A DNA stretch of 64,000 nucleotides. Source: Gemmatimonadales bacterium. GTDB lineage: Bacteria > Gemmatimonadota > Gemmatimonadetes > Gemmatimonadales > GWC2-71-9. The notes below the pieces were generated by a model that was not told the DNA's origin, made no database searches, and saw nothing but the letters and a program-made list of their open reading frames with translations. Within the stretch, counting starts at the first letter, position 1, and the number at the start of each line of letters is the position of its first letter. A program made the translations under genes and the position numbers. This document shows, piece after piece, positions 12,420 through 46,195 of the stretch. The DNA lies in NCBI GenBank assembly GCA_033764615.1, contig JANRIU010000063.1, positions 2,779 to 66,778 of the forward strand, in the 5' to 3' direction.

Positions 12420-13391
12420 ATGCACTCGACCGTTCGCGGCGCGGTGATGCCGCTCCTGGGCCTTGCCCTCGCCCTGCCCGCCCTCGCGACCGCGCAGCAG
12501 ACGTGGTCGGTGGAGGGGTTCGGGTACTCTCCCGCGCTCTCCACGTTCCTGTTCGATATCGATGGCGCGGGGAAGGACATTCGCAACACGAATGGGACGG
12601 GCGTGGTCACGCGGCGGGACCCGGCGGGGCCGTTCGTTGAGGGGAGGTACTCCGACCCGGAGGCACACGAGGCGAGGGCCAGCGTGCGCCGGTATCTGGG
12701 GGATTACCGCGACCGTCCGATCTACGGCCTGCCGGGCGACCTTCACAGCGCGCAACTCGGCGTGGGCGTCGAGAACAGCAGGGCCGGGATGAGCGGATCC
12801 ACCGACTCCTACGTGCAATTCCAGGACTATCTCACGATCACCGCGTGGGGAGGGTCCGACCAGCGCATCGGCGCGTACTTCCTCGGCAGCTTCACGGGCG
12901 AGTCGTTCTCCATGTATCGCTCGACGGCGAAGATGTCGTTCTGGGTCGAGAACATCACGCAGGGCTGGGTCTCGGGCAGCAACGACGCGGTGCTTGTCCA
13001 GGACGGCGGCGACGGTGCCGACGTTGACATGATCTGCGGCCGTTCGCTCGGCTTCGACCTCCGGTGCGCGGTCGATCCGATCAACCTTAGCCTGGCGCGC
13101 GGGAACTGGCGCTCGCAGATCTGGACCTCGCTCGACGGCCGCACCTTCCAGGGCGACGTGCTCCGAGTCTTCATGCGCATGGCGGTGTCCGTCCCGCCGT
13201 TCATCAGGGCGGGCGCCAACCTGTTCCAGACGGGTGGCATGCTGATCCGCGGCGACGGCATCCAGGTCTCGTCGGCGTCCGGCACGTGGGGCGTGGTGCA
13301 GGCGCCCACCACCGTCGTCCCGGAGCCGTCGACGTACGCGCTCCTCGGCGGCGGGCTGCTGCTGCTCGGCATCGCGAGCCGGCGGCGGTAG
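12420..13391 (+). CDS. PEP-CTERM sorting-domain secreted protein
   Basis: Signal peptide (LLGLALALPALATAQ) and a C-terminal VPEPSTYALLGGGLLLLGIASRRR, which gives the PEP motif, a TM helix and an Arg cluster. Confidence 0.8.
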   Translation: MHSTVRGAVMPLLGLALALPALATAQQTWSVEGFGYSPALSTFLFDIDGAGKDIRNTNGTGVVTRRDPAGPFVEGRYSDPEAHEARASVRRYLGDYRDRPIYGLPGDLHSAQLGVGVENSRAGMSGSTDSYVQFQDYLTITAWGGSDQRIGAYFLGSFTGESFSMYRSTAKMSFWVENITQGWVSGSNDAVLVQDGGDGADVDMICGRSLGFDLRCAVDPINLSLARGNWRSQIWTSLDGRTFQGDVLRVFMRMAVSVPPFIRAGANLFQTGGMLIRGDGIQVSSASGTWGVVQAPTTVVPEPSTYALLGGGLLLLGIASRRR

Positions 13392-22755: not shown

Positions 22756-22908
22756 GCGCTGCTCCTCGAACGGGGGTGGGGCCCGGCACGCGAAACGCGC
22801 CCCTCCGGGGCGCGCCCGAGTGATTATGGGCCCGGCCCCATGAAGCAATGATGAGGACCGCCCCAAGGCGCCTTGCCCCTCCGCCCGCGCCCCGGCTTCA
22901 TTCGCGCC

Positions 22909-24365
22909 ATGTCCGTCCGCCTGCGCGTCCTGCTCGGCTTCGCGCTCATGCTCGTGCCCGTCCTGCTGCTGGGCGCCGTCGCGCTGCGCGCCAACAGCGC
23001 CGAGCGGGCGGCGCTGGAGCAGCTGGGCGAGGGACTCGCACGGACGCGGACGTTCGCCGAGCTGGAGGCGGCGCTGCAGGCGCAGGCGGAGGTGGTGTGG
23101 CGCGGGCTCTCCGGCCGCGACGCCGGTGCCCGGCGCGAGCACGCACTCGCGCGCGAGGTGACGGCCGCTCGCGAGGCGGCGTGGCGCGCCGTGCTCCGCC
23201 CCGACGAGCAGCCGCTCGCCACGCGGCTCGACCGCGCGCGCGGCGCGCTCGACGCGGCGGCCGACACGATGTTCGCGATGATGGCGCGCGGCGACACGGC
23301 GGCGGCGTGGCGCGTGGCGCAGGGGGAGTTCCGCACGCTGGTGCTGCCGCTGCTGCAGCTGACGAGCCGCGAGATCTACGCGCAGCTGCGGCAGACGTCG
23401 GTGCGCGGCGCGTTCACGCGGCTGGAGCAGATCCTCGCGAGCGAGCGGCGCGCGCTCGTGCTCATCGTGGTGCTGGCGCTCGGGCTCGGTGTCGCGGCAT
23501 CGTGGCGCATCGCGCGCGACGTGGCGTCGCCGCTGGCGCAGCTGGCCGACGCGATGCGCCTCGTGGGCGAGGGGCAGCTCGACGCGCCGCTCCCGCCCGC
23601 CGGCGACGACGAGGTCGGCCGCCTCGCCGCCGCGTTCGGCCGCATGCGCGACAACCTGCGCGCCGCCCTCGGCCGCGCGGTGCAGGCGGAGCGGCTCGCC
23701 TCCATCGGCCAGATGGCGGCGTCGGTGGCGCACGGGCTGCGCAACCCGCTGGCGGGCGTCCGCGCCAGCGCGCAGGCCGCGATGGCGCTGCCGCCGGGCT
23801 CCGCCGCCTTCCGCGAGATGCTCGACGGCATGGTCGCCGAGGTGGACCGGCTGGACCGGCGGATCACGCACCTGCTCAGCTTCTCCCGCCCCGCGCCGCA
23901 CCGCCCGCTGCGCGACCGGCCGGCCGCGCTCGTCGAGGGCGCGCTCTCCGCGCTCGGCGAGGGGCTGCGCGCCCGCGGCATCGCGCTCGAGACGACGCTC
24001 GACCCCGCGCTCCCCGAGGTGCTGGTGGACCCGATGCAGCTGGAGCAGGTGCTCGTGGAGCTCGTCTCCAACGCGATGCAGGCGATGCCCGCGGGCGGCA
24101 CGATCGGCGTGCACGCCCGCCCCGAGGGGGACGAGGTGGTGCTCGAGGTGGCGGACGACGGCGAGGGGATCCCCGCCGACGTGCTGCCGCAGGTGACGGA
24201 GCTCTTCTTCACCACGCGCGCCGACGGCACGGGGCTCGGCCTTGCCATCGCGCGGCGCTTCACCGAGCAGAACGGCGGCCGCCTCGAGATCGAGAGCGCG
24301 CCCGGCGCCGGGACCCGCGCACGCATCCGGCTCCCGGCCGCCGCGGCGCCGGCGGGGGCGGCCGC

Positions 24366-24369
<4 letters not shown>
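22909..24369 (+). CDS. sensor histidine kinase (periplasmic sensor, HAMP, HisKA, HATPase)
   Basis: Two TM segments, a HAMP region, the H-box MAASVAHGLRNPL, and N/G boxes (ELVSNAMQAM, DDGEGIP, GTGLGLAI). Confidence 0.85.
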
Positions 24370-25772
<1,403 letters not shown>

Positions 25773-25829
25773 GTGAGGTGGGTGATTTGGCGCAGTTGGG
25801 TGGGTGAGGGGTCGGGAATCGCGGCTCTC

Positions 25830-25897
25830 GGTCGCGGGTCAGCTTGGCGATAGCGACCCGCAAGTTGTTCGAGGAGAACGACTTGCAACCCGCGACC
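25830..25897. promoter_or_regulatory. nested palindromes upstream of pqqA (possible enhancer-binding sites)
   Basis: GGTCGCGGGT (25830-25839) is the perfect reverse complement of ACCCGCGACC (25888-25897). Between them lies the inner palindrome GCAAGTTGTT-N7-AACGACTTGC (25860-25886). Confidence 0.3.
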
Positions 25898-25913
25898 CGC
25901 TGCCCTCTCCGCA

Positions 25914-25930
25914 CGGCATACTCCCTGCTT
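25914..25930 (+). promoter_or_regulatory. weak sigma-54-like -24/-12 element upstream of pqqA
   Basis: cGGCATactccCTGCTt has GG and GC correctly spaced, with a partial match to TGGCAC-N5-TTGC. It lies about 62 nt upstream of the pqqA ATG. Confidence 0.3.
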
Positions 25931-25990
25931 TCTCCGAAGGCACAGGGTCGCCCCAGACCCGCCTGACCAATCACACCCGAGGAGAAGCAC

Positions 25991-26065
25991 ATGTCCTGGA
26001 ACAAGCCGCAGGCCGAGGTCGTCGCCGTCACGATGGAAGTCACCGCGTACGTCGCCACGCTGTAA
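25991..26065 (+). CDS. pqqA: PQQ precursor peptide PqqA (24 aa)
   Basis: Not in the ORF track. Hand translation is MSWNKPQAEVVAVTMEVTAYVATL, with the conserved W-x-K-P and E-V-T-x-Y (Glu-x3-Tyr) core. GGAGAAG lies 4 nt upstream, and pqqB is immediately downstream. Confidence 0.85.
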   Translation: MSWNKPQAEVVAVTMEVTAYVATL

Positions 26066-26075
26066 GCTGGCCGCG

Positions 26076-26103
26076 CGCGAGGCCCCCGCTCGGGGGCCTC
26101 GCG
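26076..26103 (+). terminator. stem-loop immediately after pqqA (attenuator or mRNA-stabilising hairpin)
   Basis: A 12-bp perfect stem (cgcgaggccccc - gctc - gggggcctcgcg) lying between pqqA and pqqB. Confidence 0.55.
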
Positions 26104-26131
26104 TGTCTTCCCTCCTGCTGCGTCTCCGCTC

Positions 26132-27049
26132 ATGCACGTGATCCTGCTCGGCACGGCCGCGGGCGGCGGCTATCCCCAGTGGAACTGCTGGCTTCCCGTC
26201 TCGTCGGCCGCGCGCGCGGGCGATGGGCGGGCGACGCCGCGCACCCAGTCATGCGCGGCCGTGAGCGCCGACGGCGTGCACTGGTTCCTGCTGAACGCCT
26301 CGCCTGACATCCCGCGGCAGCTGCGCCGCCTGCCCGCGGCGCCGGCCGGCGCCGCCCGGCACGTGCCGTTCGAGGGCGTGGTGCTCACGGACGCCGAGGT
26401 GGACCACTCGCTGGGGCTCGTGCTGCTGCGCGAGGCGCGGCACCTGCCGCTCTGGTGCACGCCCGCGGTGCACCGGATCCTGCGCGAGGACTCGGGCGTG
26501 CTGCGCATGGTGGAGGCGTTCGCCGAGGTGCCGTGGACGCCGCTGGCGGCCGGTGTCGCGCAGCCGCTCGCGCGGCGCGACGGGTCGCCGAGCGGGCTCA
26601 CGGTCGAGGCGTTCGGCGTCGCGGCCGACCCGCCGCGCTTCGCGACGCGTGCGGAGCCGCTCCACACCGTGGGGCTCGAACTCCGCGACGCGAGCGGCGC
26701 CCGGCTCGTGTACGCGCCCGGCATCGGCGACCTGGACGAGCCGTTCCTCGCGCGGGCGCGCGGCGCCGACCTGGTGCTGGTCGACGGCACCTTCTGGACC
26801 GACGACGAGATGATCGCGCTCGGCGTGGGCACGCGCACCGCGCGCGCGCTCGACCACGTGCCGATGAGCGGGCCCGACGGCTCGCTGGAGCGCCTGAAGC
26901 GGATCGGCGGCACGCGCACCGTCTACGTGCACATCAACACCACCAACCCCGCCCTCCTCGCCGACAGCGAGGCGCGCCGCGCCATCGAGGCGGCGGGGAT
27001 CGCCGTCGGCCACGACGGCATGGAGTTCCACCTGACCGGGAGCCGCTGA
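26132..27049 (+). CDS. pqqB: PQQ biosynthesis protein B (metallo-beta-lactamase fold)
   Basis: N-terminal ILLGTAAGGGYPQWNC and overall PqqB-like sequence. Position in the pqq operon. Confidence 0.9.
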   Translation: MHVILLGTAAGGGYPQWNCWLPVSSAARAGDGRATPRTQSCAAVSADGVHWFLLNASPDIPRQLRRLPAAPAGAARHVPFEGVVLTDAEVDHSLGLVLLREARHLPLWCTPAVHRILREDSGVLRMVEAFAEVPWTPLAAGVAQPLARRDGSPSGLTVEAFGVAADPPRFATRAEPLHTVGLELRDASGARLVYAPGIGDLDEPFLARARGADLVLVDGTFWTDDEMIALGVGTRTARALDHVPMSGPDGSLERLKRIGGTRTVYVHINTTNPALLADSEARRAIEAAGIAVGHDGMEFHLTGSR

Positions 27050-27804
27050 TGCCCGCCACGCTCGAGCCGCCCGCCGCCACGCTCGCCGCCCCGCCGCGGC
27101 CGCCGATCCCCGCGCTCGCGGCGCCGCTCACGCCCGACGAGCTGGAGGCGGCCCTCCGCGCGTTCCAGGGTTCGTACTACGTGGAGCACCCGTTCCACCG
27201 GCGGATGTACGACGGCACGCTGACGCGGCGGCAGTTCCAGGGCTGGGCCGCCAACCGGCTCGCGTACCAGCGCGTGATCCCGCGGAAGGACGCGGCGATC
27301 CTCTCCAACTGCCCCGACCAGGCCGTGCGCCGCGCCTGGATCGGCCGCATCACCGACCACGACGGCACCGGGCCCGGCACCGGCGGCATCGAGAAGTGGA
27401 TCGCGCTCGGCGTGGCGCTCGGCCTGACGCGCGAGGAGATGGAGGACGAGCGGCACGTGCTGCCCGGCGTGCGGCTCATCTGCGAGAGCTACGTGCACTT
27501 CTGCCGCACGAAGCCGTGGGTGCAGGCGTGCGCGTCGTCGCTGACCGAGCTGTTCGCGCCGCGCATCCACGCGGAGCGGATGGAGAGCTTCCCGCGGCAC
27601 TACCCGTGGATCCCGCCGGAGGGGCTCGACTACTTCCGCAGCCGCCTGACGCAGGCGCCGCGTGACGTGGAGCACGGCCTCGCCATCGTGCGGCGCCACT
27701 GCACCACGGTCGACACGCAGCGGCAGGCGTTCGAGGCGCTCGCCTTCAAGCTGGAGATGCTCTGGGCCATGATCGACGCCATCCACCACGCCTACCCCGC
27801 GTGA
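27049..27804 (+). CDS. pqqC: pyrroloquinoline-quinone synthase
   Basis: YYVEHPFHRRMYDGTLTRRQFQGWAANR and downstream PqqC motifs. The ATG overlaps the pqqB TGA by 1 nt. Confidence 0.9.
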   Translation: MPATLEPPAATLAAPPRPPIPALAAPLTPDELEAALRAFQGSYYVEHPFHRRMYDGTLTRRQFQGWAANRLAYQRVIPRKDAAILSNCPDQAVRRAWIGRITDHDGTGPGTGGIEKWIALGVALGLTREEMEDERHVLPGVRLICESYVHFCRTKPWVQACASSLTELFAPRIHAERMESFPRHYPWIPPEGLDYFRSRLTQAPRDVEHGLAIVRRHCTTVDTQRQAFEALAFKLEMLWAMIDAIHHAYPA

Positions 27805-28100
27805 CCGGCGGCGACGAGGCCGGGGCGCGGGTCCCCCGGCTGTGGCGGCTCGCGAAGCTCGCGCACGACGACGTGCGGCAGCGGCCCGTGCTGCTGTATC
27901 CGGAGGGGGCGGTGCTGCTCAACGACACGGGCCGCGCCATCCTCGACCTGGTGGACGGGACCCGCACCATCGACGCCATCGCGGCGATCCTCGCCGCGCG
28001 CTACGGCGCCGACGTGCGCGCCGACGTGATCGACTACCTCGACCTCCTCGAGCGGCAGGAGCTGCTCTCCTATGCCCAAGGCCCCTCCGCCGTCGGCTGA
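27801..28100 (+). CDS. pqqD: PQQ biosynthesis peptide chaperone PqqD
   Basis: 99-aa PqqD/RRE-like sequence (LLYPEGAVLLNDTGRAILDLVDG). GTGA overlap with pqqC. Confidence 0.85.
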   Translation: MTGGDEAGARVPRLWRLAKLAHDDVRQRPVLLYPEGAVLLNDTGRAILDLVDGTRTIDAIAAILAARYGADVRADVIDYLDLLERQELLSYAQGPSAVG

Positions 28101-29208
28101 CGGCCCCGCGCGCGCCGAGCGGCGGCCGACGACGCTGCTCGCCGAGCTGACGCACCGCTGCCCGCTGCACTGCCCGTACTGCTCGAACCCGATCGACCTG
28201 ATCCGGGCCGAGCGGGAGCTCTCGACCGACGACTGGAAGCGCGTCTTCACCGAGGCCAGGGCGCTCGGCGTGCTGCAGCTCGGCCTCTCCGGCGGCGAGC
28301 CGCTGGTGCGGAAGGACCTCGAGGCGCTCGCGACGCACGCGCACGGCCTCGGCCTGTACCAGACGCTCGTCACCTCCGCGCTGGGCCTCACGCGCCAGCG
28401 CGCCGAGGCGCTGCGCGCCACGGGGCTCGAGCACGTGCAGATCTCGCTGCAGGACGCGGACGACGCGAACGCGGAGCGGATCGCCGGCGTCTCGTCGGTG
28501 AGGCAGAAGAAGGCCGCGGCCGGGTACGTGCGGGAGCTCGGCTTCGCGTTCACGGTGAACGTGGTGCTGCACCGGCAGAACCTCGACCGGATCGGCGCGC
28601 TGATCGACCTCGCCGCCGAGATGGGCGCCGACCGGCTGGAGCTGGCGAACACCCAGTACTACGGCTGGGGCCTGCGGAACCGCGACTGGCTGATGCCGAC
28701 GCGCGCGCAGCTCGACGCGGCGCAGCCGGTGGTGGAGGCGGCGATGCGGGCGCACAAGGGGCGCATGCAGATCCTCTACGTGCTCCCCGACTACCATCAG
28801 GCGTTCCCGAAGCCGTGCTACGGCGGCTGGGGGAACTTCTACATCGTGCTCGCGCCCGACGGGCGCGCGCTTCCCTGCCACGGCGCGACGGAGCTCGACT
28901 TCCTGACCCTCGACAGCGTGCGCGAGCACAGCCTCCAGTGGATCTGGGAGGCGTCCCCCGCCTTCAACGCGTTCCGCGGCGATGCGTGGATGGCGGAGCC
29001 GTGCCGCAGCTGCGAGCGGAAGGCGCTCGACTTCGGCGGCTGCCGCTGCCAGGCGTATGCGCTGACGGGCGACGCGCGCAACGGCGACCCCGTGTGCACG
29101 AAGGTGCCGCACCGCCCGCTCATCGACGCCGCGCTCGCCGCGGCCGACGGCACCGACTTCCGGTACCGCGGCTTCGCCGACGCGCGGGACGCGGCCGCCC
29201 TCCCCTGA
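28072..29208 (+). CDS. pqqE: PQQ biosynthesis radical SAM/SPASM enzyme PqqE
   Basis: CPLHCPYCSN radical-SAM cluster motif and a C-terminal Cys-rich SPASM region (CRSCERKALDFGGCRCQAY). Confidence 0.92.
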   Translation: MPKAPPPSADGPARAERRPTTLLAELTHRCPLHCPYCSNPIDLIRAERELSTDDWKRVFTEARALGVLQLGLSGGEPLVRKDLEALATHAHGLGLYQTLVTSALGLTRQRAEALRATGLEHVQISLQDADDANAERIAGVSSVRQKKAAAGYVRELGFAFTVNVVLHRQNLDRIGALIDLAAEMGADRLELANTQYYGWGLRNRDWLMPTRAQLDAAQPVVEAAMRAHKGRMQILYVLPDYHQAFPKPCYGGWGNFYIVLAPDGRALPCHGATELDFLTLDSVREHSLQWIWEASPAFNAFRGDAWMAEPCRSCERKALDFGGCRCQAYALTGDARNGDPVCTKVPHRPLIDAALAAADGTDFRYRGFADARDAAALP

Positions 29209-30137
29209 GCGACGCCCCCGCCATCGAGGCGCGCGGCCTGGGCCGCGACCATGGCGGGCGGCCCGCGCTGCACGCGCTCGACCTCGCCGTGCCGGCCGGC
29301 GCGCTCGTCGGCCTGCTCGGCCCGAACGGCGCGGGCAAGACCACCACCATGCTGCTGCTCGCCACGCTGCTCGCGCCGACGCGCGGGCGCGCGGCGCTGT
29401 TCGGGCACGACGTGACGCGCGAGCGGCGCCGCGCCCGCGAGGCGCTTGGCCTCGTCTTCCAGGAGCCGTCGGTCGACGGGCTGCTGACGGTGCGCGAGAA
29501 CCTCGCGTTCGCGCTCGCGCTCGCCGGGCTGGCGGACGGGGGAGCGGGCGGGCGGATCGACGCGGCGCTCGCCGCGAGCGGCCTCGCGCGCTTCGCGGGC
29601 CAGCAGGCGCGCACGCTCTCGGGCGGCTGGCGGCGGCTGCTCGACATCGTGCGGGCCACGCTGCACGGGCCGAGGCTCCTCATCCTCGACGAGCCGACGG
29701 TCGGCCTCGACCCCGAGCACCGCGACGCGATGTGGCACCTGCTCGACGCGGAGCGGCGCGCACGCGGCACCACGGTGCTCTTCTCCACGCACTACCTCGA
29801 GGAGGCGGCGGACGCCGACCGCGTGGTGCTGCTCGCGGCGGGGCGGGTCGTGGCCGACGGGGCGCCCGCGGAGCTGGCGGCGGAGGTCGGCACGCTGGTG
29901 GCGGAGGTGGACGGACCCGGCGCGGCGCGCGTCGCGGAGGCGCTCGACGCGGCGGGCGCGACGGTGATCGCGCGCACGGCGCGCGGCGTGCGCCTCGGGC
30001 TCCGGGCCGGTGGCGAGCGGCTCGCCGAGGTCGCGACGCCGGAGCGGGGCGTCACGCGGCTCGTGGTGCGCGCGCCGTCGCTGGATGACGCCTACCTCCT
30101 GCACACGCAGGCGGCGCGCGCGGAGGGCGCCGCGTGA
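29205..30137 (+). CDS. ABC transporter ATP-binding protein (ABC-2/DrrA-like)
   Basis: Walker A GPNGAGKTT, signature LSGGWRR, Walker B LLILDEP. No in-frame ATG/GTG/TTG is close to the conserved N-terminus (AIEARGL). The only candidate is a CTG overlapping the pqqE stop (CTGA). Confidence 0.8.
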   Translation: MSDAPAIEARGLGRDHGGRPALHALDLAVPAGALVGLLGPNGAGKTTTMLLLATLLAPTRGRAALFGHDVTRERRRAREALGLVFQEPSVDGLLTVRENLAFALALAGLADGGAGGRIDAALAASGLARFAGQQARTLSGGWRRLLDIVRATLHGPRLLILDEPTVGLDPEHRDAMWHLLDAERRARGTTVLFSTHYLEEAADADRVVLLAAGRVVADGAPAELAAEVGTLVAEVDGPGAARVAEALDAAGATVIARTARGVRLGLRAGGERLAEVATPERGVTRLVVRAPSLDDAYLLHTQAARAEGAA

Positions 30138-30895
30138 GCGCGCTCGTCGTGGTGCGCGGCATCGTCGTGCGCGACGCGCGGCGCTGGCTGCGGCAGGGGA
30201 GCCGCCTCGCGGCCGGCCTCGGGCGCCCGTTCCTCTGGGTGCTGTTCGTCGGGCTCGGCTTCCAGGGGATCGCGCGGGTGGACGAGGGGATCCCGTACTC
30301 GGCATACGCCTACCCCGGCGGCATCGCGATGGGCGTGCTGTTCGGCGGCATGCTCACGGCGATCAGCACCGTGTACGACCGCGAGTTCGGCATGCTGCGG
30401 CTCATGCTCGCGAGCCCGGCCGGCACGCTCCCCGTGCTCGCGGGGCGCACCCTCTCGGCGGCGCTGGTGGGGACGCTCCAGGGGCTGGTGGTCCTCGCCG
30501 CGGCGCCGCTCGCGATGCCGGTGGGTCCGGCGCAGCTCGCGGCAGGCGCGCTGGCGGTGGTGGCGGGCGCCCTCGCGAGCGCCGCGCTCGGGCTCCTCGT
30601 CGCGAGCCGGCTCACCTCGGTCGAGAACTTCGGCGGCGTCATCAACGTCGTGCTCTTCCCCATGCTCTTCCTCAGCGGCGCCCTCGCCCCGCTCGACCGG
30701 ATGCCGGCCGCGTTCCGCGTGGCGGCGCTCGCCAACCCGGTCACCTACCTGCTCGACCTGCTGCGCCATGCGCTCGGCCAGCGCGCGGCGTTCGGCGTCG
30801 CGACCGACCTGCTGGCGCTCGCACTGGCGTTCGCGCTCGCGTTCGGCGGTGCGGCGCTGCTCTTCGACCCCGAGCGGCGCTTCCTCCGCCGCTGA
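30134..30895 (+). CDS. ABC-2 type transporter permease
   Basis: 253 aa with six hydrophobic segments. The GTG start overlaps the ATPase stop (GTGA). Confidence 0.8.
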   Translation: MSALVVVRGIVVRDARRWLRQGSRLAAGLGRPFLWVLFVGLGFQGIARVDEGIPYSAYAYPGGIAMGVLFGGMLTAISTVYDREFGMLRLMLASPAGTLPVLAGRTLSAALVGTLQGLVVLAAAPLAMPVGPAQLAAGALAVVAGALASAALGLLVASRLTSVENFGGVINVVLFPMLFLSGALAPLDRMPAAFRVAALANPVTYLLDLLRHALGQRAAFGVATDLLALALAFALAFGGAALLFDPERRFLRR

Positions 30896-30933
30896 CGGCG
30901 ACCCGAGAGCGCCGGGCGGGGTAGCATCCGCGC

Positions 30934-31785
30934 ATGCCGCCGCGCTGGCTCCGCCTCACGCTCCTCCTCGCCGTCCTGCTCTACGCGACCTGGGCCTGGC
31001 TGCTGTACGGCGGCCAGCGGCAGATGCTGTACCCGGGGGCCTGGATGACGCGCGACACCCCCCCGCCCCCCCCGCCCGCCGACGCGGTCGTCCTCCAGCT
31101 GCCGACCTCCGCCGGACGCGTGGAGGCGTGGTACCTGCCGCCGCGCGTCGCGGGGGCGCGGGTGCCCGCCCTGCTCCTCTTCCACGGCAACAACGAGACG
31201 GTCGACCGGTGGCTGGAGGAGACGTCGACGCTGCGCGCGCGCGGCATCGCGGTGCTGCTCACCGAGTACCCGGGCTACGGCCGGAGCGAGGGGAAGCCGG
31301 AGCTCGCGAACATCATGGAGACCGCGCGCGCCGCCTACGACGCGCTCGTGGCGCGCCCCGAGGTCGACCCGGCGCGCATCATCGTGATGGGGCACTCGCT
31401 CGGCGGGGGGCCGGCGAGCGCGCTCACGCGCGAGCGGCCGGTCGCGGCGCTGGTGCTGCTCTCGACCTACACGCGGATCACCGAGTTCGCGGCGAGCTAC
31501 CTGCTCCCCGCGTTCCTCGTCGAGGAGCGGTGGGACAACCTCTCGGCGGTGCAGGCGTACGCGGGGCCGGTGTTCATCGCGCACGCGCCCGCGGATCCGG
31601 TGGTGCCGTTCGCGCACGCGGAGGCGCTCGCGCGCGCGGCGCGGCGCGGGCGGCTGGTGCCGCTGGCGTGCACCCATGGCGACTGCCCGCCCGACTGGCC
31701 GGCGTTCGAGGGTGAGCTGGTGCGGTGGCTGGCGGAGGCGGGAGTGGCCGTCGGCACGCAACCGTTGCACGACGCCAGGCGCTGA
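30934..31785 (+). CDS. alpha/beta-fold hydrolase
   Basis: N-terminal TM or signal segment, nucleophile elbow GHSLGG, and later D and H candidates (HAPADPVVPF, CTHGDC). Confidence 0.75.
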   Translation: MPPRWLRLTLLLAVLLYATWAWLLYGGQRQMLYPGAWMTRDTPPPPPPADAVVLQLPTSAGRVEAWYLPPRVAGARVPALLLFHGNNETVDRWLEETSTLRARGIAVLLTEYPGYGRSEGKPELANIMETARAAYDALVARPEVDPARIIVMGHSLGGGPASALTRERPVAALVLLSTYTRITEFAASYLLPAFLVEERWDNLSAVQAYAGPVFIAHAPADPVVPFAHAEALARAARRGRLVPLACTHGDCPPDWPAFEGELVRWLAEAGVAVGTQPLHDARR

Positions 31786-31832
31786 CGTCCCGCGCCGCGC
31801 GAAGCATGCAACGGCGAACCCATGCACTCGGT

Positions 31833-31848
31833 TGGCACGGCGATTGCA
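31833..31848 (+). promoter_or_regulatory. sigma-54 promoter upstream of the PEP-CTERM gene 32021..32701
   Basis: TGGCACGGCGATTGCA is an exact match to the TGGCACG-N4-TTGCA consensus. It is intergenic and correctly oriented. Confidence 0.7.
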
Positions 31849-32020
31849 GCCCTTCAATGGACGTGCGGGCATTCTGCCCCAACGCAACACCCAACAACCG
31901 ACGTGATGCCATCAACACCCCTAACCCGCCCTTCCCGCCGTGGCGCCGTTGCAACACCAAGGTGGGCGTTGTCACAACACCCTGGGCCGTCCGTGCCCGC
32001 ACTCGCAGGAGGAGTTTCTC

Positions 32021-32701
32021 ATGAAGCGGTACCTGTTCACCGCCGCGCTGGTCACGCTCGCCGTGCCCGCGCAGGCCCAGACGCTGGTCACGTCGAACTT
32101 CGGCGGCACCGTCGCGACGAACTTCTCGCAGCTCGCGGCCGACCCCTGCTACAACGGGTCGTACTGCTTCACGTTCGGTCCGAAGCCGGTCGGGGCGAAC
32201 GGCTACAACGTCACCTTCACCTCGGCCGTCACGAACTCGAACAGCCCGCTCGGCTCGGCGATCGGCAACGGCGGCTATGGCCTCAACGCGAACGGATTCT
32301 GGAGCGGCGTCTGGTTTGCCAGCACGGACGGCGGCAACGGCTTCATCCGCTTCTCCTTCACCGCGCCGGTCCGCCGCTTCGGCGGCTTCATGAACTACGC
32401 GCCGGGCTCCGGTCCGGCCTCGACGATCCGCGCGCTCGACCAGCTCAACAACGTCATCGCGAGCTACGACATCGAGGCGCTGGCGCCGATTTCCACGCCC
32501 GGCGGCAACAACGCCGGCGCGTTCCGCGGCATCGAGTTCGCCACGGCGGAGATCTGGTCGCTCGAGATCGGCAACAGCTACCTGCTCATGCAGGACATGG
32601 TCGTGGACGGCCAGTCGGTCGTGCCGGAGCCGGGCACGGTGGTGCTCATGGGCACGGGCCTCCTCGGCCTCGTCGCCGCGGCGCGCCGTCGCGCGCGCTG
32701 A
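32021..32701 (+). CDS. PEP-CTERM sorting-domain secreted protein
   Basis: AGGAGGAG lies upstream of the ATG at 32021. Signal peptide LVTLAVPAQAQ and C-terminal VPEPGTVVLMGTGLLGLVAAARRRAR. Confidence 0.8.
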   Translation: MKRYLFTAALVTLAVPAQAQTLVTSNFGGTVATNFSQLAADPCYNGSYCFTFGPKPVGANGYNVTFTSAVTNSNSPLGSAIGNGGYGLNANGFWSGVWFASTDGGNGFIRFSFTAPVRRFGGFMNYAPGSGPASTIRALDQLNNVIASYDIEALAPISTPGGNNAGAFRGIEFATAEIWSLEIGNSYLLMQDMVVDGQSVVPEPGTVVLMGTGLLGLVAAARRRAR

Positions 32702-32764
32702 ACCGCTCCGCCACCGCCTGACGCGGGCGCCGCCCTCCGGGGCGGCGCCCGTTACGTTCCGGGG

Positions 32765-33520
32765 GTGTCCACCCCCGCCTTCGCCGACGCGCTCCGCGCC
32801 CGGCGCCCGCTCCTCGGCTGCATCGTCACGCAGCCCGTCCCCGACTTCGCCGAGCTGTATGCCGCCGCCGGGTGGGACTGGCTGCTGCTCGACCTCGAGC
32901 ACGGCCTGCTCGACCTCGCCGACTGCCAGCGCCTCGACCAGGCCGCCCCCGCGCTCGCCAGCGTGGTGCGCGTCCCGTCGCTGGAGGGGAACTGGCTCGC
33001 GCGCGCGCTCGACACCGGCGTCGCCGGGGTGATGGTGCCGCGCATGCAGGACGCGGCGCAGGCGGCCGCCGCCGTGCGGCAGGCGAAGTACCCGCCGCTC
33101 GGCGAGCGCGGCGTCGGCCTCGCGCGCGCGACACGCTGGGGCGCGGCGATCCCCGGCGTCGTCACCGAGGCGAACCGCGCCACGGCGCTGCTCCTGCAGA
33201 TCGAGGACGCGACCGGCGTCGCCCATGCCGACGCCATCGCGCGCACCCCCGGCGTCGACGCGCTCTTCCTCGGGCCGTTCGACCTCTCCACCTCGCTCGG
33301 CGTGCCCGGCCAGCTCGACGCCCCCGTCGTCCGTGAGGCGGTCGCGCGCGTGCGCACGGCGGCGGAGGCGGCGGGGCTCCCGCTCGGCATCCTCGCGCCG
33401 ACCGCCGCGGGCGCGCGGCAGGCGATCGCGGAGGGGTACACGCCGCTCCTCGTCGGCGCCGACCTCCCGATGCTCGCCGGCGCGGCGCGCGCGCTGCGCG
33501 AGGCGATCGGCGACGCCTGA
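32765..33520 (+). CDS. HpcH/HpaI-family aldolase
   Basis: LLLDLEHG, VRVPS, GVMVPRM and KYPPLGERG motifs of class II 2-keto-3-deoxyacid aldolases. GTG start. Confidence 0.8.
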   Translation: MSTPAFADALRARRPLLGCIVTQPVPDFAELYAAAGWDWLLLDLEHGLLDLADCQRLDQAAPALASVVRVPSLEGNWLARALDTGVAGVMVPRMQDAAQAAAAVRQAKYPPLGERGVGLARATRWGAAIPGVVTEANRATALLLQIEDATGVAHADAIARTPGVDALFLGPFDLSTSLGVPGQLDAPVVREAVARVRTAAEAAGLPLGILAPTAAGARQAIAEGYTPLLVGADLPMLAGAARALREAIGDA

Positions 33521-33523
33521 GCG

Positions 33524-34798
33524 ATGCCGGCCTGGTTCGACACCGCACTCGCCGTCGCGGCCGGCCTCGGCCTCGCGGCCGCATGCGGCTTCCGCGTGTT
33601 CGTGCCGCTCCTCGTCGCCTCCGCGGCGCACCGGCTCGGCCACCTGCCGCTCGCCGACGGCATGGCATGGCTCGGCTCGGACATGGCACTCGCCGCGCTC
33701 GCGCTCGCGACCGTGCTGGAGGTGGGGGCGTTCTACGTGCCGTGGCTCGACCACGCGCTCGACCTGGCGGCGACGCCGGCCGCGGTGCTCGCCGGCATCG
33801 TCGCGGCCGCGGCGCCGCTCGTCGACCTGCCACCGGCGCTCCGCTGGGTGGTGGCCGTCATCGGCGGCGGCGCGGCCGCGGGGCTGATGCAGGGGGCGAC
33901 CGTGTTGCTGCGCATGAAGAGCACGGCGACCACCGCGGGCGCGGGGAACGCCGTGGTCGCCACGGGCGAGGTGGCGGGCGCGCTGGTGCTCGCGGCGTGC
34001 GCGGTGCTCGTGCCGCTCGCCGCGCTCGCGTTCGCGGCGGTGCTGCTCTGGTTCGGCGCGCGCGCCACGGGCCGCCTGCTCTTCGGCCGTCGCGCGCGGG
34101 GCGCGGCGGCGGCCGCCCTCCTGCTGCTCGTCGGCGTGGCCGATGCAGGCGCCCAGGCCGTGGCCCCCGGCGACGCCGCGGTGGACGGCCGGCGGCTCGC
34201 CGCCGAGACGACGCGGTGGCGCTGGGTGATGGTGCGGCCCGACGGGCAGGAGTCGCCGGTCGGCGCGCTGGTGGACGAGCTCGTGCGGGTGGAGGCGCCG
34301 GGCGGTCGCGCCGAGTGGCGGCGGGTGCTGAGCGTGCGGCGCGGGCCGAGCATGCTGGTCGACACGACATGGAGCGATGCCGCGACGCTGGCCCCGCGGG
34401 CGCATCGCTCGTGGCAGCCGCTCCGCACGCTCGCATACGACGTCGCCGGCGCGCGCGTGACCGGCGCGGTGAGCCCGAAGGGGGGCGCACCGCAGCCGAT
34501 CGACACGACGCTTCCGGGCCCCCGCTTCGACAGCGGCAACTGGGACCTCGTCGCGCGCGCGCTGCCGCTCGCCGAGGGGTACGCGACGGCGCTCGAGGTG
34601 TGGGATCCCGACCAGGGGGCCACGCGGATCACCCTCCGGGTCACGCGGCGCGAGGCCGGGCCCGGGGGCGCGTGGGTCGTGGTCGCCGAGATCGGCGGCG
34701 CGCCGGCGACGCTCCGCATCGACCCCGCGACGCGGGCGGTGCTCGGGCTCGACGTGTCGATGGGTGGGGGGACGCTCCGCCAGCGGCGCGAGGAGTGA
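33524..34798 (+). CDS. membrane protein: DUF4126-like N-terminal domain fused to an uncharacterised soluble domain
   Basis: The N-terminal ~190 aa are Gly/Ala-rich TM segments resembling DUF4126 (GLAAACGFRVFVPLL). The C-terminal ~220 aa have no family I recognise. Confidence 0.6.
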   Translation: MPAWFDTALAVAAGLGLAAACGFRVFVPLLVASAAHRLGHLPLADGMAWLGSDMALAALALATVLEVGAFYVPWLDHALDLAATPAAVLAGIVAAAAPLVDLPPALRWVVAVIGGGAAAGLMQGATVLLRMKSTATTAGAGNAVVATGEVAGALVLAACAVLVPLAALAFAAVLLWFGARATGRLLFGRRARGAAAAALLLLVGVADAGAQAVAPGDAAVDGRRLAAETTRWRWVMVRPDGQESPVGALVDELVRVEAPGGRAEWRRVLSVRRGPSMLVDTTWSDAATLAPRAHRSWQPLRTLAYDVAGARVTGAVSPKGGAPQPIDTTLPGPRFDSGNWDLVARALPLAEGYATALEVWDPDQGATRITLRVTRREAGPGGAWVVVAEIGGAPATLRIDPATRAVLGLDVSMGGGTLRQRREE

Positions 34799-34831
34799 CC
34801 GCATCGGGACGGGGCGCTGGTAGCTTGGAGC

Positions 34832-35092
34832 ATGTCCGCCGCCCACGACGCCGATCGCCTCGTCCGGATCCGCGTCTGCCACCAGCAGCCCGACCTCCGC
34901 GCCCGCGCCGACGAGCTCATCGCCCGGCTCGCGGGCACGCTCGGCGTGGCCGCCGAGGCGATCCCGGGCCGGCTCGGCGAGTTCAGCGTGCTCGTCGGCA
35001 ACGAGATGGTCGCGAAGAAGGGGTGGCTGGGCGTGCCGTCCACCGCGCGGCTCGTGGCCGCCGTCCGCGCCGCGCTGCCGCGCGGCGCGTGA
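34832..35092 (+). CDS. hypothetical protein, Rdx/SelW-like fold suspected
   Basis: The pattern V-R-I-R-V-C...RA..L...L....G.FSV.V....V.KK resembles bacterial Rdx-family proteins, but only one Cys sits where CxxC/CxxU is expected. Confidence 0.4.
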   Translation: MSAAHDADRLVRIRVCHQQPDLRARADELIARLAGTLGVAAEAIPGRLGEFSVLVGNEMVAKKGWLGVPSTARLVAAVRAALPRGA

Positions 35093-35123
35093 TCACCGGA
35101 ACCCGAACGGGGTACCTCCCGAC

Positions 35124-35594
35124 ATGACCGTCCGACCGCTCCTCCTGCTCGCCGCCCTCGCGGCCGCTCCCGGCACCGCCACCGCGCAGGGCACCGGCCG
35201 CGCCGTCGCCACCGCCCCCGCCGCCACGATGACCGTCTACAAGAGCCCCACGTGCGGCTGCTGCGCCAAGTGGGTGGACCACGCGAAGGCGGCGGGACTC
35301 AAGGCGAAGGTGGTCGAGATGACCGACGCGGAGCTGGACGAGACGAAGGCCGCGATGGGCGTGGCACCGAAGCTCCAGTCGTGCCACACGGCGATCATCG
35401 ACGGCTACGTCTTCGAGGGCCACGTGCCGGCCGACCTGGTGCTCAAGGTGCTGAAGGAGCGCCCGAGGATCGCCGGCCTCGCGGTGCCCGGGATGCCGCA
35501 GGGTTCGCCGGGCATGGAGACGGGCACGAAGGACAGGTACGACGTGATCGCATTCGAGAAGAACGGCACCACGCGCGTCTTCGCGACGCGCTGA
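35124..35594 (+). CDS. DUF411/CopG-like periplasmic metal-binding protein
   Basis: Signal peptide, YKSPTCGCCAKW, CHTAIIDGYVFEGHVPA, and GLAVPGMPQGSPGME. Confidence 0.75.
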   Translation: MTVRPLLLLAALAAAPGTATAQGTGRAVATAPAATMTVYKSPTCGCCAKWVDHAKAAGLKAKVVEMTDAELDETKAAMGVAPKLQSCHTAIIDGYVFEGHVPADLVLKVLKERPRIAGLAVPGMPQGSPGMETGTKDRYDVIAFEKNGTTRVFATR

Positions 35595-35613
35595 CCCCAC
35601 CGCCCCGAAGACC

Positions 35614-36090
35614 ATGCCCCAGCCCCTGATCGACATCGGCATCCCCGCCCCGCAGCGCGAGGCGATCGCCGCCGGCCTCGGCCGGCTCCTCGCCGACTCC
35701 TACACGCTGCTGCTCAAGACGCACGGCTACCACTGGAACGTGGAGGGCCCGATGTTCAACACCCTGCACGAGATGTTCAGCGTGCAGTACGTGGAGCTCC
35801 AGACGGCGGTCGACGAGATCGCGGAGCGCATCCGCGCCCTCGGCGTGAAGGCGCCGGGGTCGCTCGGCGCCTTCGCGGGGCTGTCGAGCATCGGCGAGCC
35901 GGGGGCGGCGCCCAGCGCCGAACAGATGATCGCCGACCTGCTGGCGGGGAACGAGGCGGTGGTGCGGACCGCGCGCGCGGTGCTGCCGCTGGCGCAGGAG
36001 GCGCGGGACGAGTCGAGCACCGACCTGCTGATCGAGCGGATGCGGCTCCACGAGAAGACGGCCTGGATGCTGCGCTCGATGCTCGCGTAG
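35614..36090 (+). CDS. dps: Dps-family DNA-protecting ferritin-like protein
   Basis: YTLLLKTHGYHWNVEGPMFNTLHEMF and DEIAERIRALG are ferroxidase-site motifs of Dps. Confidence 0.85.
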   Translation: MPQPLIDIGIPAPQREAIAAGLGRLLADSYTLLLKTHGYHWNVEGPMFNTLHEMFSVQYVELQTAVDEIAERIRALGVKAPGSLGAFAGLSSIGEPGAAPSAEQMIADLLAGNEAVVRTARAVLPLAQEARDESSTDLLIERMRLHEKTAWMLRSMLA

Positions 36091-36101: not shown

Positions 36102-36896
36102 TCAGCGGCCCGGCGGCAGCCGCCGCAGCGTGGTCCGCCGCGCCACCACGCTCGCCACGGGCACCCGCACCGGCCCGCCCTTCGGGACCATGCCGCGCAC
36201 CTCCTCCTCGCGCGTCCACGCGAGGAGCCCCGCCCCGGCGCGCCACGCCACCGTCCCCCGCTCGCTCCACTCCTCGCTCCCGCGCACGCGCAGCGTGTCG
36301 GCCGCCGGCCCGGCGGGGGCGACGCGGCGGCCGCTGCGCTCGATGCGATACCGCTCGACGGGGTCGGCACCGGGAAGGGAATCCGGCAGGCGGGTGATGC
36401 GCGTGCCGCGGCGGTCGTCCCAGCGCTCGCCGGGAGCGAGCGCGCGGCCCGGCAGCGGCGGCAGCAGGTCGTCCAGCAGCGCCGCGAAGTCGTGCACCTC
36501 GGCGAGCTCGTCGGGGATGAACGGCGCCGCCTCGCGGCTCCAGCCGCCCGCGGCACCGAGCGTCCCGCGCCAGCGGCCGCCGACGAGCCCGTCGGTGTCG
36601 GGGGCGAGGGTCGTCCCCTCGGCGCTCCGCACCGCGGCGAGCGAGTCGTACCACGCCTCCAGGCGCTGCGCGCCACCGGGCATCTCGCCGAGCCGCCGCA
36701 GCACCAGCACCCCCTCGCGCGCGAGCTCCACGCGCAGCGCCCCCTCGCCCTGCCCCACCACCGCGGCGACGCGCGCCTCCTCGGCGAACCGCGCGCCATC
36801 GAGCCACGCCCCGTAGCGCGGCGCCTCCTGCGCACCGAGCCCGGTCGCCGCCGCGAGGAGCGGCACGAGGGCGGCGGCCGGCGCGCCCCGCGTCAC
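36102..36896 (-). CDS. hypothetical secreted protein
   Basis: The GTG start overlaps the gcvP stop (GTGA). Signal-peptide-like [18 protein letters not shown]. No family recognised. Confidence 0.5.
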
Positions 36897-42944: not shown

Positions 42945-43924
42945 GGGAACACTCCGAGCGGCGCGGGCCCGACGGGCGCGATGGGCCACATCACGTCCAG
43001 GCCGTTGCGGGTGAGGATCGCGCGCCCCTCGGGCGAGAAGAGGAAGCGCGTGAACGCCTTCGCCGCCTCCGGGTTGGGCGCGCGGCGCGGGATGGTGAAG
43101 CCGTAGGCGATCGGCTCGCCGGTGAGCGTGAGCGTCGTCCCCTTCGGCCCGCGCACCTTCACGAGCGCGAGGGAATACTGCCGGGCGAGGCGCGACTCCG
43201 AGAGGTCGACCGCGGGGCCGAGGCGCAGCATGCGGAGCCCGGGCGTGACGCCGGCGATGGAGGCGTAGCTCCACGCGTAGTCGAGCTCGCCGGCCTGCAG
43301 CAGCGCGATGAGGTCGGCCTCCTTCGGCCGCATGTACTTCGGTGGCATCGCGCGCTCGAGCTGCAGCCCGAGCCCGATCTCGCCCGTGGCGGCCTCGAGC
43401 AGCTGCAGCACCATGAGCGTGCGGTAGCCGTTCGGGTCGAGCGCGGGGTCGGAGCGGCCGGTGCGCACGTCCGGCCGCGTCAGCACGCGCCACCAGTTGT
43501 CCTGGCGGATCTCGCGCGCGTACTTCGACCGGTCGGTGTAGGCGAGCACCATCGCATTCCTCGCGAAGACGGCGTGCCACGAGGCGTGCTCGGGCTCGAG
43601 CAGGCGGGGGATGAGCTGGTAGTCGGCGAGGAGCACCACGTCGGGCACCTTGCCGAGGTCGGTGATCTTCCGCACCGTCTCGAGCGACCCGGCGTTCTCC
43701 TGCCGCGTGTCCACCTTCGGGAAGCGCGCCTTGAACGCCTTCAGCACCTCGCCCACCGGCCGCGCGAGCGAGCCCGCGTTGAACACCGTGAGCGGGCCCT
43801 GCTGCGCGAGGGCGGACGGGCGGTCCGGCGGACTGGCGGACAGCAGCGCGACGAGCGGCAGCAGCCGGCGGAGCAGCGCGCCCCCGGTCCGCCCGTCCGA
43901 CCGTCCGCCCGTCCGCCCCTTCAC
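42941..43924 (-). CDS. periplasmic substrate-binding protein, ModA/WtpA (molybdate/tungstate)-like
   Basis: LTVFNAGSL, ENAGSLE, DVVLLADY and DPALDPNGYRT resemble oxyanion-binding PBPs. The only canonical start is a GTG overlapping the upstream stop (GTGA), so the N-terminal KGRTGGRSDGRTGG is encoded by the repeat arm. Confidence 0.7.
43809..43918. repeat. octamer inverted-repeat element D, between the prolyl oligopeptidase stop and the binding-protein signal peptide
   Basis: Left arm gggcggacgggcggtccggcggactggcggac (43809-43840). Right arm ggtccgcccgtccgaccgtccgcccgtccgccc (43886-43918). Confidence 0.8.
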
Positions 43925-46065: not shown

Positions 46066-46138
46066 GACGGGTGACCTCGGGGCGGAGCACGGCGGGCGGG
46101 GTGGTCGAGCCAAGATAGCCCCCTCCCGTACCCCGGTG

Positions 46139-46144: not shown

Positions 46145-46195
46145 CTTCGCCGCTTTGTGCCACCGGACCCTCGGCATCGACAGGACCCGACTCGC

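Follow-up and report, generated by a model that had tools for sequence, protein, structure and literature searches.

An ABC-2 transporter coupled to pqqE as a candidate inner-membrane PQQ exporter in Gemmatimonadota

The pqq operon of a Gemmatimonadales bacterium continues past pqqE into two overlapping genes, an ABC ATPase (29205-30137) and an ABC-2 permease (30134-30895). We interpret the pair as a type V (ABC-2) exporter that forms the coupled tail of a putatively sigma-54-controlled pqqABCDE operon and exports PQQ, a reading to which we give a probability of roughly 0.5. PQQ export is the function best supported by the genomic context, from which both the substrate and the direction of transport are deduced.

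PQQ is a planar tricarboxylate anion, and this 330-Da tri-anion is unable to cross the inner membrane unaided. Bacteria synthesise it in the cytoplasm but employ it in the periplasm (PMC12124388). In the literature searched for a confirmed exporter of PQQ we found hypotheses and candidates only, and the old proposal that PqqB is the exporter is still being repeated. A full-text search, with the 2012 survey of pqq distribution (doi 10.1021/bi201763d) lying outside its scope, turned up no account of an ABC-2 pump linked to pqq in Gemmatimonadota. The pqqE-attached pump would be a testable candidate for the missing inner-membrane step of PQQ export. As it is always tied to pqqE in two deeply diverged clades, it offers a concrete gene pair that could be transferred together with pqqABCDE into a heterologous host, and testing it would bear on bacterial cofactor trafficking, on PQQ as a common good of soil communities and on the engineering of PQQ overproduction.

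The pqq operon and its transporter genes

The window, that is, the whole 64,000-nucleotide stretch analysed, carries a pqqABCDE set on its forward (+) strand, on which all features below lie unless marked (-). PqqB (26132-27049; TIGR02108, 341 bits against a cutoff of 245), PqqC (27049-27804; TIGR02111, 312 against 240), PqqD (27801-28100; TIGR03859, 70 against 46) and the radical-SAM/SPASM enzyme PqqE (28072-29208; TIGR02109, 500.8 against 381) all score above their NCBIfam equivalog cutoffs. Upstream of pqqB, pqqA (25991-26065) encodes the precursor peptide MSWNKPQAEVVAVTMEVTAYVATL with its Glu-x3-Tyr core, and near-identical peptides occur in 51 relatives. The pqqC gene starts at ATG 27049 in a TGATG overlap with the pqqB stop, and pqqD overlaps pqqC by GTGA; the coordinates of pqqA and the start of pqqC given here are slight corrections. 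The gap between pqqA and pqqB holds a 15-bp G+C stem-loop (26073-26106) with a folding energy of -40.2 kcal/mol (z = -4.19 against shuffles). Neither a PQQ-dependent dehydrogenase nor pqqF was found among the scanned open reading frames of the window; an M16 peptidase (14387 to ~17000, -) was rejected as PqqF at 78 bits against a 320-bit cutoff.

Upstream of the operon lie a sensor histidine kinase (22873-24369; Pfam HAMP, HisKA and HATPase_c) and a sigma-54-dependent response regulator (24366-25772; Pfam Response_reg, Sigma54_activat and HTH_8). The regulator domains were found on a longer open reading frame (22848-25772), and the start at 24366 is taken from the GTGA overlap with the 3' end of the kinase gene. 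By locus comparison, the kinase and regulator pair also stands 5' of pqqA in relatives, the response regulator in most clade-1 and clade-2 loci. A sigma-54-type promoter motif, GGCAT-N6-CTGCT (-24 GG, -12 GC; 25915-25929), assigned by motif match, lies 62 nt 5' of pqqA, and a GGCAY-N5/6-CTGC motif occupies the same side of pqqA in 43 of 51 distinct relatives. Scans of 25700-32000, which are weak evidence for this phylum, gave no sigma-70 promoters or intrinsic terminators; the same scans and the folding of the junctions, which fold no better than shuffles, gave neither a promoter nor a terminator belonging to the ATPase and permease pair.

The ATPase (PF00005, 102 bits; 310 codons counted from CTG 29205) keeps all of its motifs intact in translation: Walker A, Q-loop, LSGG signature, Walker B with the catalytic Glu, and H-loop. 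It matches the clade consensus at all but 2 of 116 conserved columns and is closest to the nucleotide-binding domains of ABCA transporters. Its stop codon (TGA 30135-30137) overlaps the canonical start of the 253-residue permease (GTG 30134; PF01061, 101 bits) as GTGA, just as originally described, and the permease start is preceded by GGAGGG, with a Shine-Dalgarno duplex energy of -10.0 kcal/mol. An AlphaFold2 model of the permease (pLDDT 85.6, pTM 0.87) finds its best Foldseek matches in the PDB among KpsM, ABCG1/2/5/8/25, ABCH, TarG and NosY; as modelled, the protein has the transmembrane fold of type V exporters. No substrate-binding protein gene was found beside the pair, either in the window or in the loci of relatives. 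Together, the separate ABC ATPase, the ABC2_membrane permease of type V fold and the lack of a neighbouring binding-protein gene define a type V (ABC-2) exporter.

In the permease, 9 of 110 conserved columns carry a residue other than that of the clade consensus, Y185A and E219A among them. We considered that the pump might be decaying after losing its start codon, and reject this, since the lineage is equally divergent in its pqq genes, ATPase and permease: the distance ratios of the window lineage to the clade are 1.23-1.41 for pqqB-E, 1.31 for the ATPase and 1.35 for the permease, and the ATPase motifs are intact.

In the window the pair is flanked by pqqE on the 5' side and by genes for an alpha/beta hydrolase, a PEP-CTERM protein and an aldolase on the 3' side. 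The hydrolase (30934-31785) does carry the GHSLGG motif that had been noted (residues 153-158), and the suggestion that it could serve the pathway as an accessory peptidase or esterase had to be dropped: tblastn found no homologue in 171 related loci, and the gene adjoins the module without being part of it, within a genome-specific insertion of ~5.2 kb between the permease and a conserved convergent gene (36117-36803, -).

Linkage to pqqE among relatives

Among the relatives with upstream DNA, all of them metagenome-assembled genomes, pqqE lies directly 5' of the pump without exception, in 73 of 73 permease-homologue loci of species-representative genomes and in 11 of 11 context look-ups. The pump was never found without pqq among the relatives. 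The linked pair spans two divergent Gemmatimonadota clades and a few Acidobacteriota, and all six of the closest ATPase homologues on long contigs show the order HK-RR-(pqqA)-pqqBCDE-ATPase-permease with 4-nt overlaps. In clade 2 the permease is 39-47% identical, the ATPase is only 250-257 residues long and pqqB has been relocated upstream of the regulators; the pqqE-ATPase overlap there is ATGA (5 of 5 unbiased look-ups). Across the family, a canonical start overlaps the pqqE stop in ~72 of 76 distinct clade-1 relatives (~67 GTGA, 4 TTGA, 1 ATGA) and in 8 of 8 clade-2 loci. The synteny on which the original prediction had staked itself is therefore strongly borne out and, because the 4-nt stop/start overlap is also the family norm, the pair acts as the sixth and seventh genes of the pqq operon.

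Shine-Dalgarno-like pairing across the family is at background level before the ATPase (-3.3 against -3.0 kcal/mol) and averages -6.0 kcal/mol before the permease. We envision that ribosomes ending pqqE at the overlapping stop would resume translation at the ATPase gene without the aid of a Shine-Dalgarno sequence, and that the permease would then be initiated from its own SD-like GGAGGG at the second GTGA overlap. Through this coupled translation from pqqE, the pump would be made in step with the PQQ pathway, and it would move finished PQQ through the inner membrane to the quinoproteins that use it in the periplasm. The termination-reinitiation originally proposed fits the family-wide overlap and ATPase starts that lack a Shine-Dalgarno sequence; the CTG codon to which it had been attached is not part of the system. 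A fuller claim, which we hold tentatively and at somewhat less than even odds, is that the pair is the first identified dedicated inner-membrane PQQ exporter, that it represents a Gemmatimonadota/Acidobacteriota subfamily confined to physical and translational linkage with pqqE, and that it is expressed in this genome by termination-reinitiation at CTG.

The linkage runs one way. Three pqq operons with a pqqE 65-71% identical to that of the window (L092, L095, L101) lack the pump, and their pqqE abuts the same convergent gene; in three other loci (L090, L096, L099) the pump is missing and unrelated genes lie 3' of pqqE, a clade-2-like locus (L102) also lacks it, and no pump was found 3' of pqqE in about 55 more distant pqqE loci. 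Since some closely related pqq operons do without it, the pump is dispensable or replaceable, and we regard it from these loci as an accessory, not a universal route. The pump needs pqq and not the reverse, as is expected of an accessory that acts on the product of the pathway.

The start of the ATPase gene

The pqqE stop occupies 29206-29208, and a CTG at 29205 forms CTGA with it, the sole in-frame start-like codon right at the junction. As the original prediction had it, the ATPase frame begins at the pqqE stop and no ATG, GTG or TTG occurs for about 110 nt upstream; this is exact, with GTG 29094 the nearest upstream and GTG 29289 the next downstream. The other start-like codons near the junction are ATC 29223 and CTG 29238. 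Read from 29205, the ATPase begins L-SDAPAIEARGLGRD...GPNGAGKT; its homologues begin MSDAPAIE.. or VSDAPAVE.., which places CTG 29205 at the homologous initiator position, and from this we infer which codon starts the gene. By comparison with relatives, the codon reads as a one-base G-to-C change from an ancestral GTG, a synonymous substitution within pqqE (Pro, CCG to CCC).

What does not hold is the view of the CTG as a feature of the system. It is the exception of a single genome among the GTGA and TTGA junctions of clade 1 and the ATGA junctions of clade 2, at a position where a canonical ATG, GTG or TTG is otherwise the rule, and CTG is a poor initiator in model bacteria. Either the ATPase of this genome is inefficiently reinitiated at a weak CTG codon, or assembly introduced a wrong base here. 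Taken alone, the CTG start matters little, apart from showing that the public model of the ATPase gene is probably mis-started.

It is somewhat unlikely that the C at 29205 was miscalled or misassembled, or represents a minority variant in a metagenome-assembled genome, and that the real junction is GTGA. Only one base is concerned, it sits within a CCCC run on a sequence carried by one contig, and a G there would leave pqqE unchanged while restoring the layout of the ~67 GTGA junctions of clade 1; the ATPase, moreover, has not decayed. Against this, the data bear no sign of low quality at that position, and one other junction (L052) is naturally CTGA, although there a GTG two codons further on offers rescue. 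The protein collection held no near-identical sister sequence covering base 29205, the best non-self ATPase match being 69% identical.

The NCBI annotation of the same contig starts the gene at GTG 29094, giving a 347-residue product (P0001) that begins MHEGAAPPAHRRRARR... and overlaps pqqE by 115 nt. This is the nearest in-frame canonical start, and public annotation chose it, but we consider it improbable. Its 37 additional Arg-rich residues (29094-29204) are read out of frame from the 3' end of pqqE, and the GTG itself derives from the GTGTG of the pqqE Pro-Val-Cys codons. The extension is present in 0 of 119 homologues, whose starts lie 36-55 residues before Walker A, against 75 in this model, and the codon lacks an SD-like sequence (-2.1 kcal/mol). 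Since the codon bias of the ATPase frame begins at 29205 (GC3 0.977 from there on, against 0.595 over 29094-29204), the NCBI start is probably wrong and the extension is unlikely to be real coding sequence. A slip of the ribosome by -1 on C_CCC_UGA (29202-29208), which would fuse PqqE to the ATPase and make a start codon unnecessary, is purely speculative and highly improbable: in CTC CCC TGA the tRNA-Pro could shift back by one base to a perfect match (CCC 29202-29204), decoding would then go on in the ATPase frame with CTG 29205, and slippage is favoured when a stop codon occupies the A site, but no fused protein occurs among the homologues, the junction has no stimulatory RNA structure (z = 0.05) and the slippery run is absent from relatives.

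Candidate substrates and comparison with known transporters

The pump could in theory export some other substance of the pathway, such as remnants of the PqqA peptide, an intermediate, a side product, or a toxic quinone whose expulsion would shield the cytoplasm; we consider this unlikely. Synteny fits any pathway-derived substrate equally well, the loss of the pump from some intact pqq operons is easier to reconcile with clean-up than with essential delivery, and ABC exporters of RiPP clusters often handle peptides (PMC3023750). However, PQQ itself must cross the inner membrane and is the simplest substrate, and the solved ABC-2 pumps of this fold transport lipids, glycans and small molecules of amphipathic or anionic character, not peptides.

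PedA1A2BC is the ABC system of PQQ-dependent alcohol dehydrogenase clusters, required in P. putida for lanthanide-dependent growth (PMC6839425), and like the present pair it joins an ABC-2 permease and an ATPase that are genetically tied to PQQ biology. It would be a poor bet, in our judgement, that the pump is likewise a PedBC-like transporter for a quinoprotein metal, lanthanide or calcium, instead of PQQ. Among named permease families, PedC comes nearest to the other pqq-linked pairs, whose permeases score best against TIGR03861 (159-165 bits, slightly above DrrB), while the window permease ties at 136.2 bits against 136.9 for DrrB, and the ATPases rank TIGR03864 second or third. All of these scores are well under the cutoffs and no better than those for DrrAB. 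The window pair falls short at 205.6 against 302.25 bits (TIGR03864) and 136.2 against 241.35 bits (TIGR03861), as do the other pqq-linked pairs; the ranges are 206-242 against 302 bits for the ATPases and 136-165 against 241 bits for the permeases. The Ped system was argued to be an importer because of its substrate-binding protein PedA1 and beta-propeller partner PedA2, and it adjoins dehydrogenase genes (PMC6839425); it has been assigned to lanthanide uptake (PMC6839425; PMC12997753), whereas the pump described here follows pqqE, to which it is coupled in place of a dehydrogenase gene, and lacks those partners.

Returning to PQQ export, META1p2359 of M. extorquens is an ABC transporter essential for growth on methanol that was proposed as a possible PQQ exporter (PMC7391723). 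It too would, as proposed, deliver PQQ to the periplasm without a binding protein, but it is described as a fused ATPase-membrane protein encoded outside the pqq operon, and the proposal was built on how mutants grow and not on PQQ assays. PqqU, a TonB-dependent receptor, and PqqT, a periplasmic binding protein, are dedicated PQQ transport proteins (PMC12124388); they belong to unrelated families and serve its uptake, in the outer membrane and the periplasm; inner-membrane export is not their role.

Structurally, the permease model matches the type V exporters KpsMT, ABCG2, ABCG25, TarGH and NosFY, with TM-scores of 0.6-0.7 and a Foldseek probability of 1.00, and ABCG2 and ABCG25 export small aromatic or carboxylate compounds. 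At only 12-19% identity and with unrelated substrates, the likeness is one of fold, not of subfamily.

DrrAB, the daunorubicin-resistance ABC-2 exporter, is the best or joint-best NCBIfam match of the window pair, although the scores (210.6 against 312.45 bits for TIGR01188, 136.9 against 223.05 bits for TIGR01247) are under cutoff, so the pair is not assigned to DrrAB. Both systems combine a split ATPase with a six-helix ABC-2 permease and no binding protein, both are encoded inside the biosynthetic cluster of a planar aromatic compound (which DrrAB exports and which our pump would export), and the clade-1 ATPases have a C-terminal extension of the same length as that of DrrA, unlike the clade-2 ATPases, which lack the C-terminal domain. 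The difference lies in what the cluster makes: not an antibiotic, but a cofactor for the cell's own periplasm.

A pump at a fixed site in the pqq locus

A complete PQQ locus surrounds the pump in the window, where G+C content is 73.7%. Plus-strand genes for a HAMP histidine kinase (22873-24369) and a sigma-54-dependent response regulator (24366-25772), assigned from Pfam and, for the regulator, also from the junction sequence, are followed by a promoter-like GG-N10-GC sequence motif (25915-25929, +) and by pqqA (25991-26065, +), identified from its sequence, with the product MSWNKPQAEVVAVTMEVTAYVATL. Directly after pqqA lies a 15-bp G+C stem-loop (26073-26106; z = -4.2 against shuffled sequences) with a pyrimidine-rich tail on its 3' side, which could determine how abundant the pqqA transcript is relative to the downstream one. 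pqqB, pqqC, pqqD and pqqE each score above their own NCBIfam equivalog cutoff, and the pqqE stop codon (TGA, 29206-29208, +) leads into the ATPase and permease genes. These two encode proteins identical to those annotated on a 69-kb Gemmatimonadales MAG contig.

The kinase and sigma-54 regulator lie directly 5' of pqqA in the window (22873-25929) and in related loci of other genomes (L001-L087), and a -24/-12-like motif, GGCAY-N5/6-CTGC, occurs 75-120 nt 5' of pqqA in 43 of 51 distinct relatives. Regulator and motif together suggest sigma-54 control of PQQ synthesis in the clade; the regulator is absent at three Acidobacteriota loci.

The original prediction, that the pump belongs to the pqq operon, held up when synteny was surveyed from the pump side. 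All six of the closest ATPase homologues on long contigs share the order kinase-regulator-(pqqA)-pqqBCDE-ATPase-permease. A scan for permease relatives, with one genome per species, returned 135 stretches; among the best 80, pqqE stands immediately 5' of the permease-bearing pair in 73 of the 73 loci with upstream DNA, the other seven being cut off on that side by a contig end. The hosts are almost all Gemmatimonadales, with a few Acidobacteriota (Luteitalea, Vicinamibacteria). One locus of the window's own pump group (clade 1), L083, is labelled "uncultured Bifidobacteriaceae bacterium"; given that its permease is 59% identical to Gemmatimonadales ones, it looks like a mis-binned contig. A second, divergent group (clade 2), labelled Gemmatimonadota by NCBI, has permeases 39-47% identical to that of the window and ATPases of 250-257 aa. 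These shorter ATPases (L168-L174, L109) lack the C-terminal domain, their genes overlap pqqE by ATGA, and a Yip1-domain gene lies convergently downstream; in L168 and L169, pqqB lies 5' of the kinase and regulator rather than after pqqA. The pqqE-ATPase overlap was retained in all five clade-2 loci looked up, which were picked solely for the length of their contigs.

A reverse search recovered 80 metagenome loci with a pqqE 47-73% identical to that of the window. Here the pump follows pqqE in four close relatives and eight clade-2 loci, and is missing after pqqE in seven close relatives with downstream DNA and in about 55 more distant loci. In 75 other loci, the permease is followed by a convergent gene that lacks a Pfam match and encodes about 276 aa (for example 9651-10481 (-) in L004), and in the pump-less loci L092, L095 and L101 pqqE abuts this same gene; likewise, pqqE of pump-less L102 adjoins the Yip1-domain gene, its counterpart neighbour in clade 2. 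Presence or absence of the pump is a clean polymorphism at one site in both clades (L092, L095, L101 and L102 versus L088, L091 and others); the pump is thus a cassette, carried or missing at one fixed site. Across the loci examined, the pump was never seen without pqq, and pqq was sometimes seen without the pump.

In the window, the homologue of the convergent gene (36117-36803, -; 40% identical) is displaced by about 5.2 kb by seven plus-strand ORFs (30934-36090): an alpha/beta hydrolase, a PEP-CTERM protein, an HpcH aldolase, a DUF4126/DUF3108 protein, an 86-aa ORF with no Pfam match (34832-35092), a DUF411 protein and a ferritin-like protein. The hydrolase (30934-31785), which carries GHSLGG and an N-terminal hydrophobic segment, had been proposed as an accessory of the pathway; we reject it as a module member, as it has no homologue at any related locus and is the first gene of this separating stretch. 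PEP-CTERM sorting motifs end two proteins (12420-13391 and 31940-32701, both +), implying an exosortase system in the organism. Elsewhere in the window, Rfam gives a c-di-GMP-I riboswitch match (4155-4252, -; 54.8 bits, gathering score 35) 5' of a small ORF (3767-4075, -), and a SAM_alpha (SAM-II) riboswitch match (53349-53425, +; 40.9 bits, gathering score 36) just 5' of a B12-dependent methionine synthase gene. The latter is slightly unexpected in Gemmatimonadales, because the family is known mainly from Alphaproteobacteria.

Start of the ATPase and its probable coupling to pqqE

The ATPase frame does open at the pqqE stop with the predicted CTG: around the junction, start-like codons are limited to GTG 29094, CTG 29205, ATC 29223 and CTG 29238, and the next canonical one, GTG 29289, is already within the nucleotide-binding fold. 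Translated from 29205, the protein reads LSDAPAIEARGLGRD...GPNGAGKT. In the 119 best ATPase homologues (57-69% identical, 302-336 aa), 36-55 residues precede Walker A, and several begin MSDAPAIE... or VSDAPAVE...; with N-termini at a matching distance, the CTG occupies the homologous initiator position. In the ATPase frame, third-codon-position G+C (GC3) is 0.977 from 29205 onward but 0.595 over 29094-29204, no different from the level of a non-coding frame farther 5' (0.548). Of the distinct junctions in clade 1, 76 in all, about 67 read GTGA, four TTGA and one ATGA, with short gaps in a few, and clade 2 has ATGA in eight of eight. CTGA recurs only at L052, which has a GTG two codons on, where the window has GAC. 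Homologue N-termini, junctions, the L052 comparison and GC3 all point to 29205 as the true start. NCBI instead places the start at GTG 29094 (347 aa, MHEGAAPPAHRRRARR...), adding 37 Arg-rich residues; this model is probably wrong, because this extension has no counterpart in any of the 119 homologues, and homologue N-termini and GC3 would place its start 111 nt too far upstream. The absence of a canonical start codon probably forced the mis-annotation.

The CTG itself is an anomaly of one genome, either a weakly reinitiating codon or a base error. Base 29205 is the third position of the last pqqE codon, and since CCC and CCG both encode Pro, a GTG-to-CTG change is silent for pqqE; the protein collection contains no near-identical sequence against which to check this base, which may reflect a true mutation or a consensus error. 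A -1 slip on C_CCC_TGA (29202-29208), a potential slippery run opening straight onto the ATPase frame, is unlikely to carry ribosomes there from pqqE, as the run is missing from relatives.

With a generic anti-Shine-Dalgarno (SD) sequence assumed, SD-like pairing 5' of the ATPase start has a mean of -3.3 kcal/mol in 75 relatives, no different from that at random positions within pqqE (-3.0); permease starts average -6.0 (-10.0 in the window, where GGAGGG precedes the GTGA overlap, confirmed at 30134-30137, +). The lack of an SD, together with the near-universal 4-nt overlap, suggests that ATPase synthesis in this family is tied to ribosomes terminating pqqE. At the junctions, scans and folding, which constitute weak evidence, detected neither a sigma-70-like promoter nor a terminator, and no RNA structure out of the ordinary.

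Pump type, substrate and known systems

Pfam assigns the ATPase to ABC_tran and the permease to ABC2_membrane. For the window and five other pqq-linked proteins, the top NCBIfam matches are the DrrA/DrrB and PedB/PedC models, all below cutoff, and the solved structures nearest to the ATPase by sequence are ABCA nucleotide-binding domains. Modelled with AlphaFold2 from an 87-sequence alignment (pLDDT 85.6, pTM 0.87), the permease matches KpsM, ABCG1/2/5/8/25, ABCH, TarG and NosY (TM-scores 0.6-0.7), and its predicted fold is that of a type V exporter. No binding-protein gene lies beside the pair. Compared with its relatives, the window lineage has diverged further throughout (distance ratios 1.23-1.41 for pqqB-E, 1.31 for the ATPase, 1.35 for the permease), and departs from the clade consensus at 2 of 116 conserved ATPase columns and 9 of 110 permease columns, including Y185A and E219A. 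We read the pump as functional, not decaying.

Judged from sequence, these data show that PQQ biosynthesis has an ABC-2 pump of exporter type as an obligate appendage, and suggest translational coupling of this pump; at the genomic level, an operon-embedded exporter is strongly supported. The distribution of the pump follows pqq, and ABC-2 pumps embedded in clusters, such as DrrAB, export the product of their own cluster. For these reasons, and because the product of the PQQ pathway has to exit the cytoplasm (PMC12124388), we put the probability that the pump exports PQQ, as genomic context would have it, at about one half. Against this stands its dispensability in some lineages. Rival readings are that it exports pathway by-products or peptide fragments, or that it has a Ped-like metal role, lanthanide uptake being the role assigned to PedA1A2BC (PMC6839425; PMC12997753).

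Two peptidase genes of the window could process PqqA: an M16 (insulinase-type) gene (14387 to about 17000, -) about 9 kb 5' of pqqA, scoring 78 bits for PqqF against a 320-bit cutoff, and an S9 prolyl-oligopeptidase-family gene (43921-46227, -) about 13 kb 3' of the permease. Both are unlinked to the operon in the relatives examined.

The searchable literature, whose coverage of pqq surveys is incomplete, yielded no account of an ABC-2 pump within a pqq operon, and the reading of an exporter embedded in the operon is apparently undescribed. Among known systems, PqqU and PqqT are uptake proteins for PQQ (PMC12124388), a Gluconobacter omics study, as cited there, names candidate transporters, and a fused ABC protein of M. 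extorquens has been hypothesised to be a PQQ exporter (PMC7391723).
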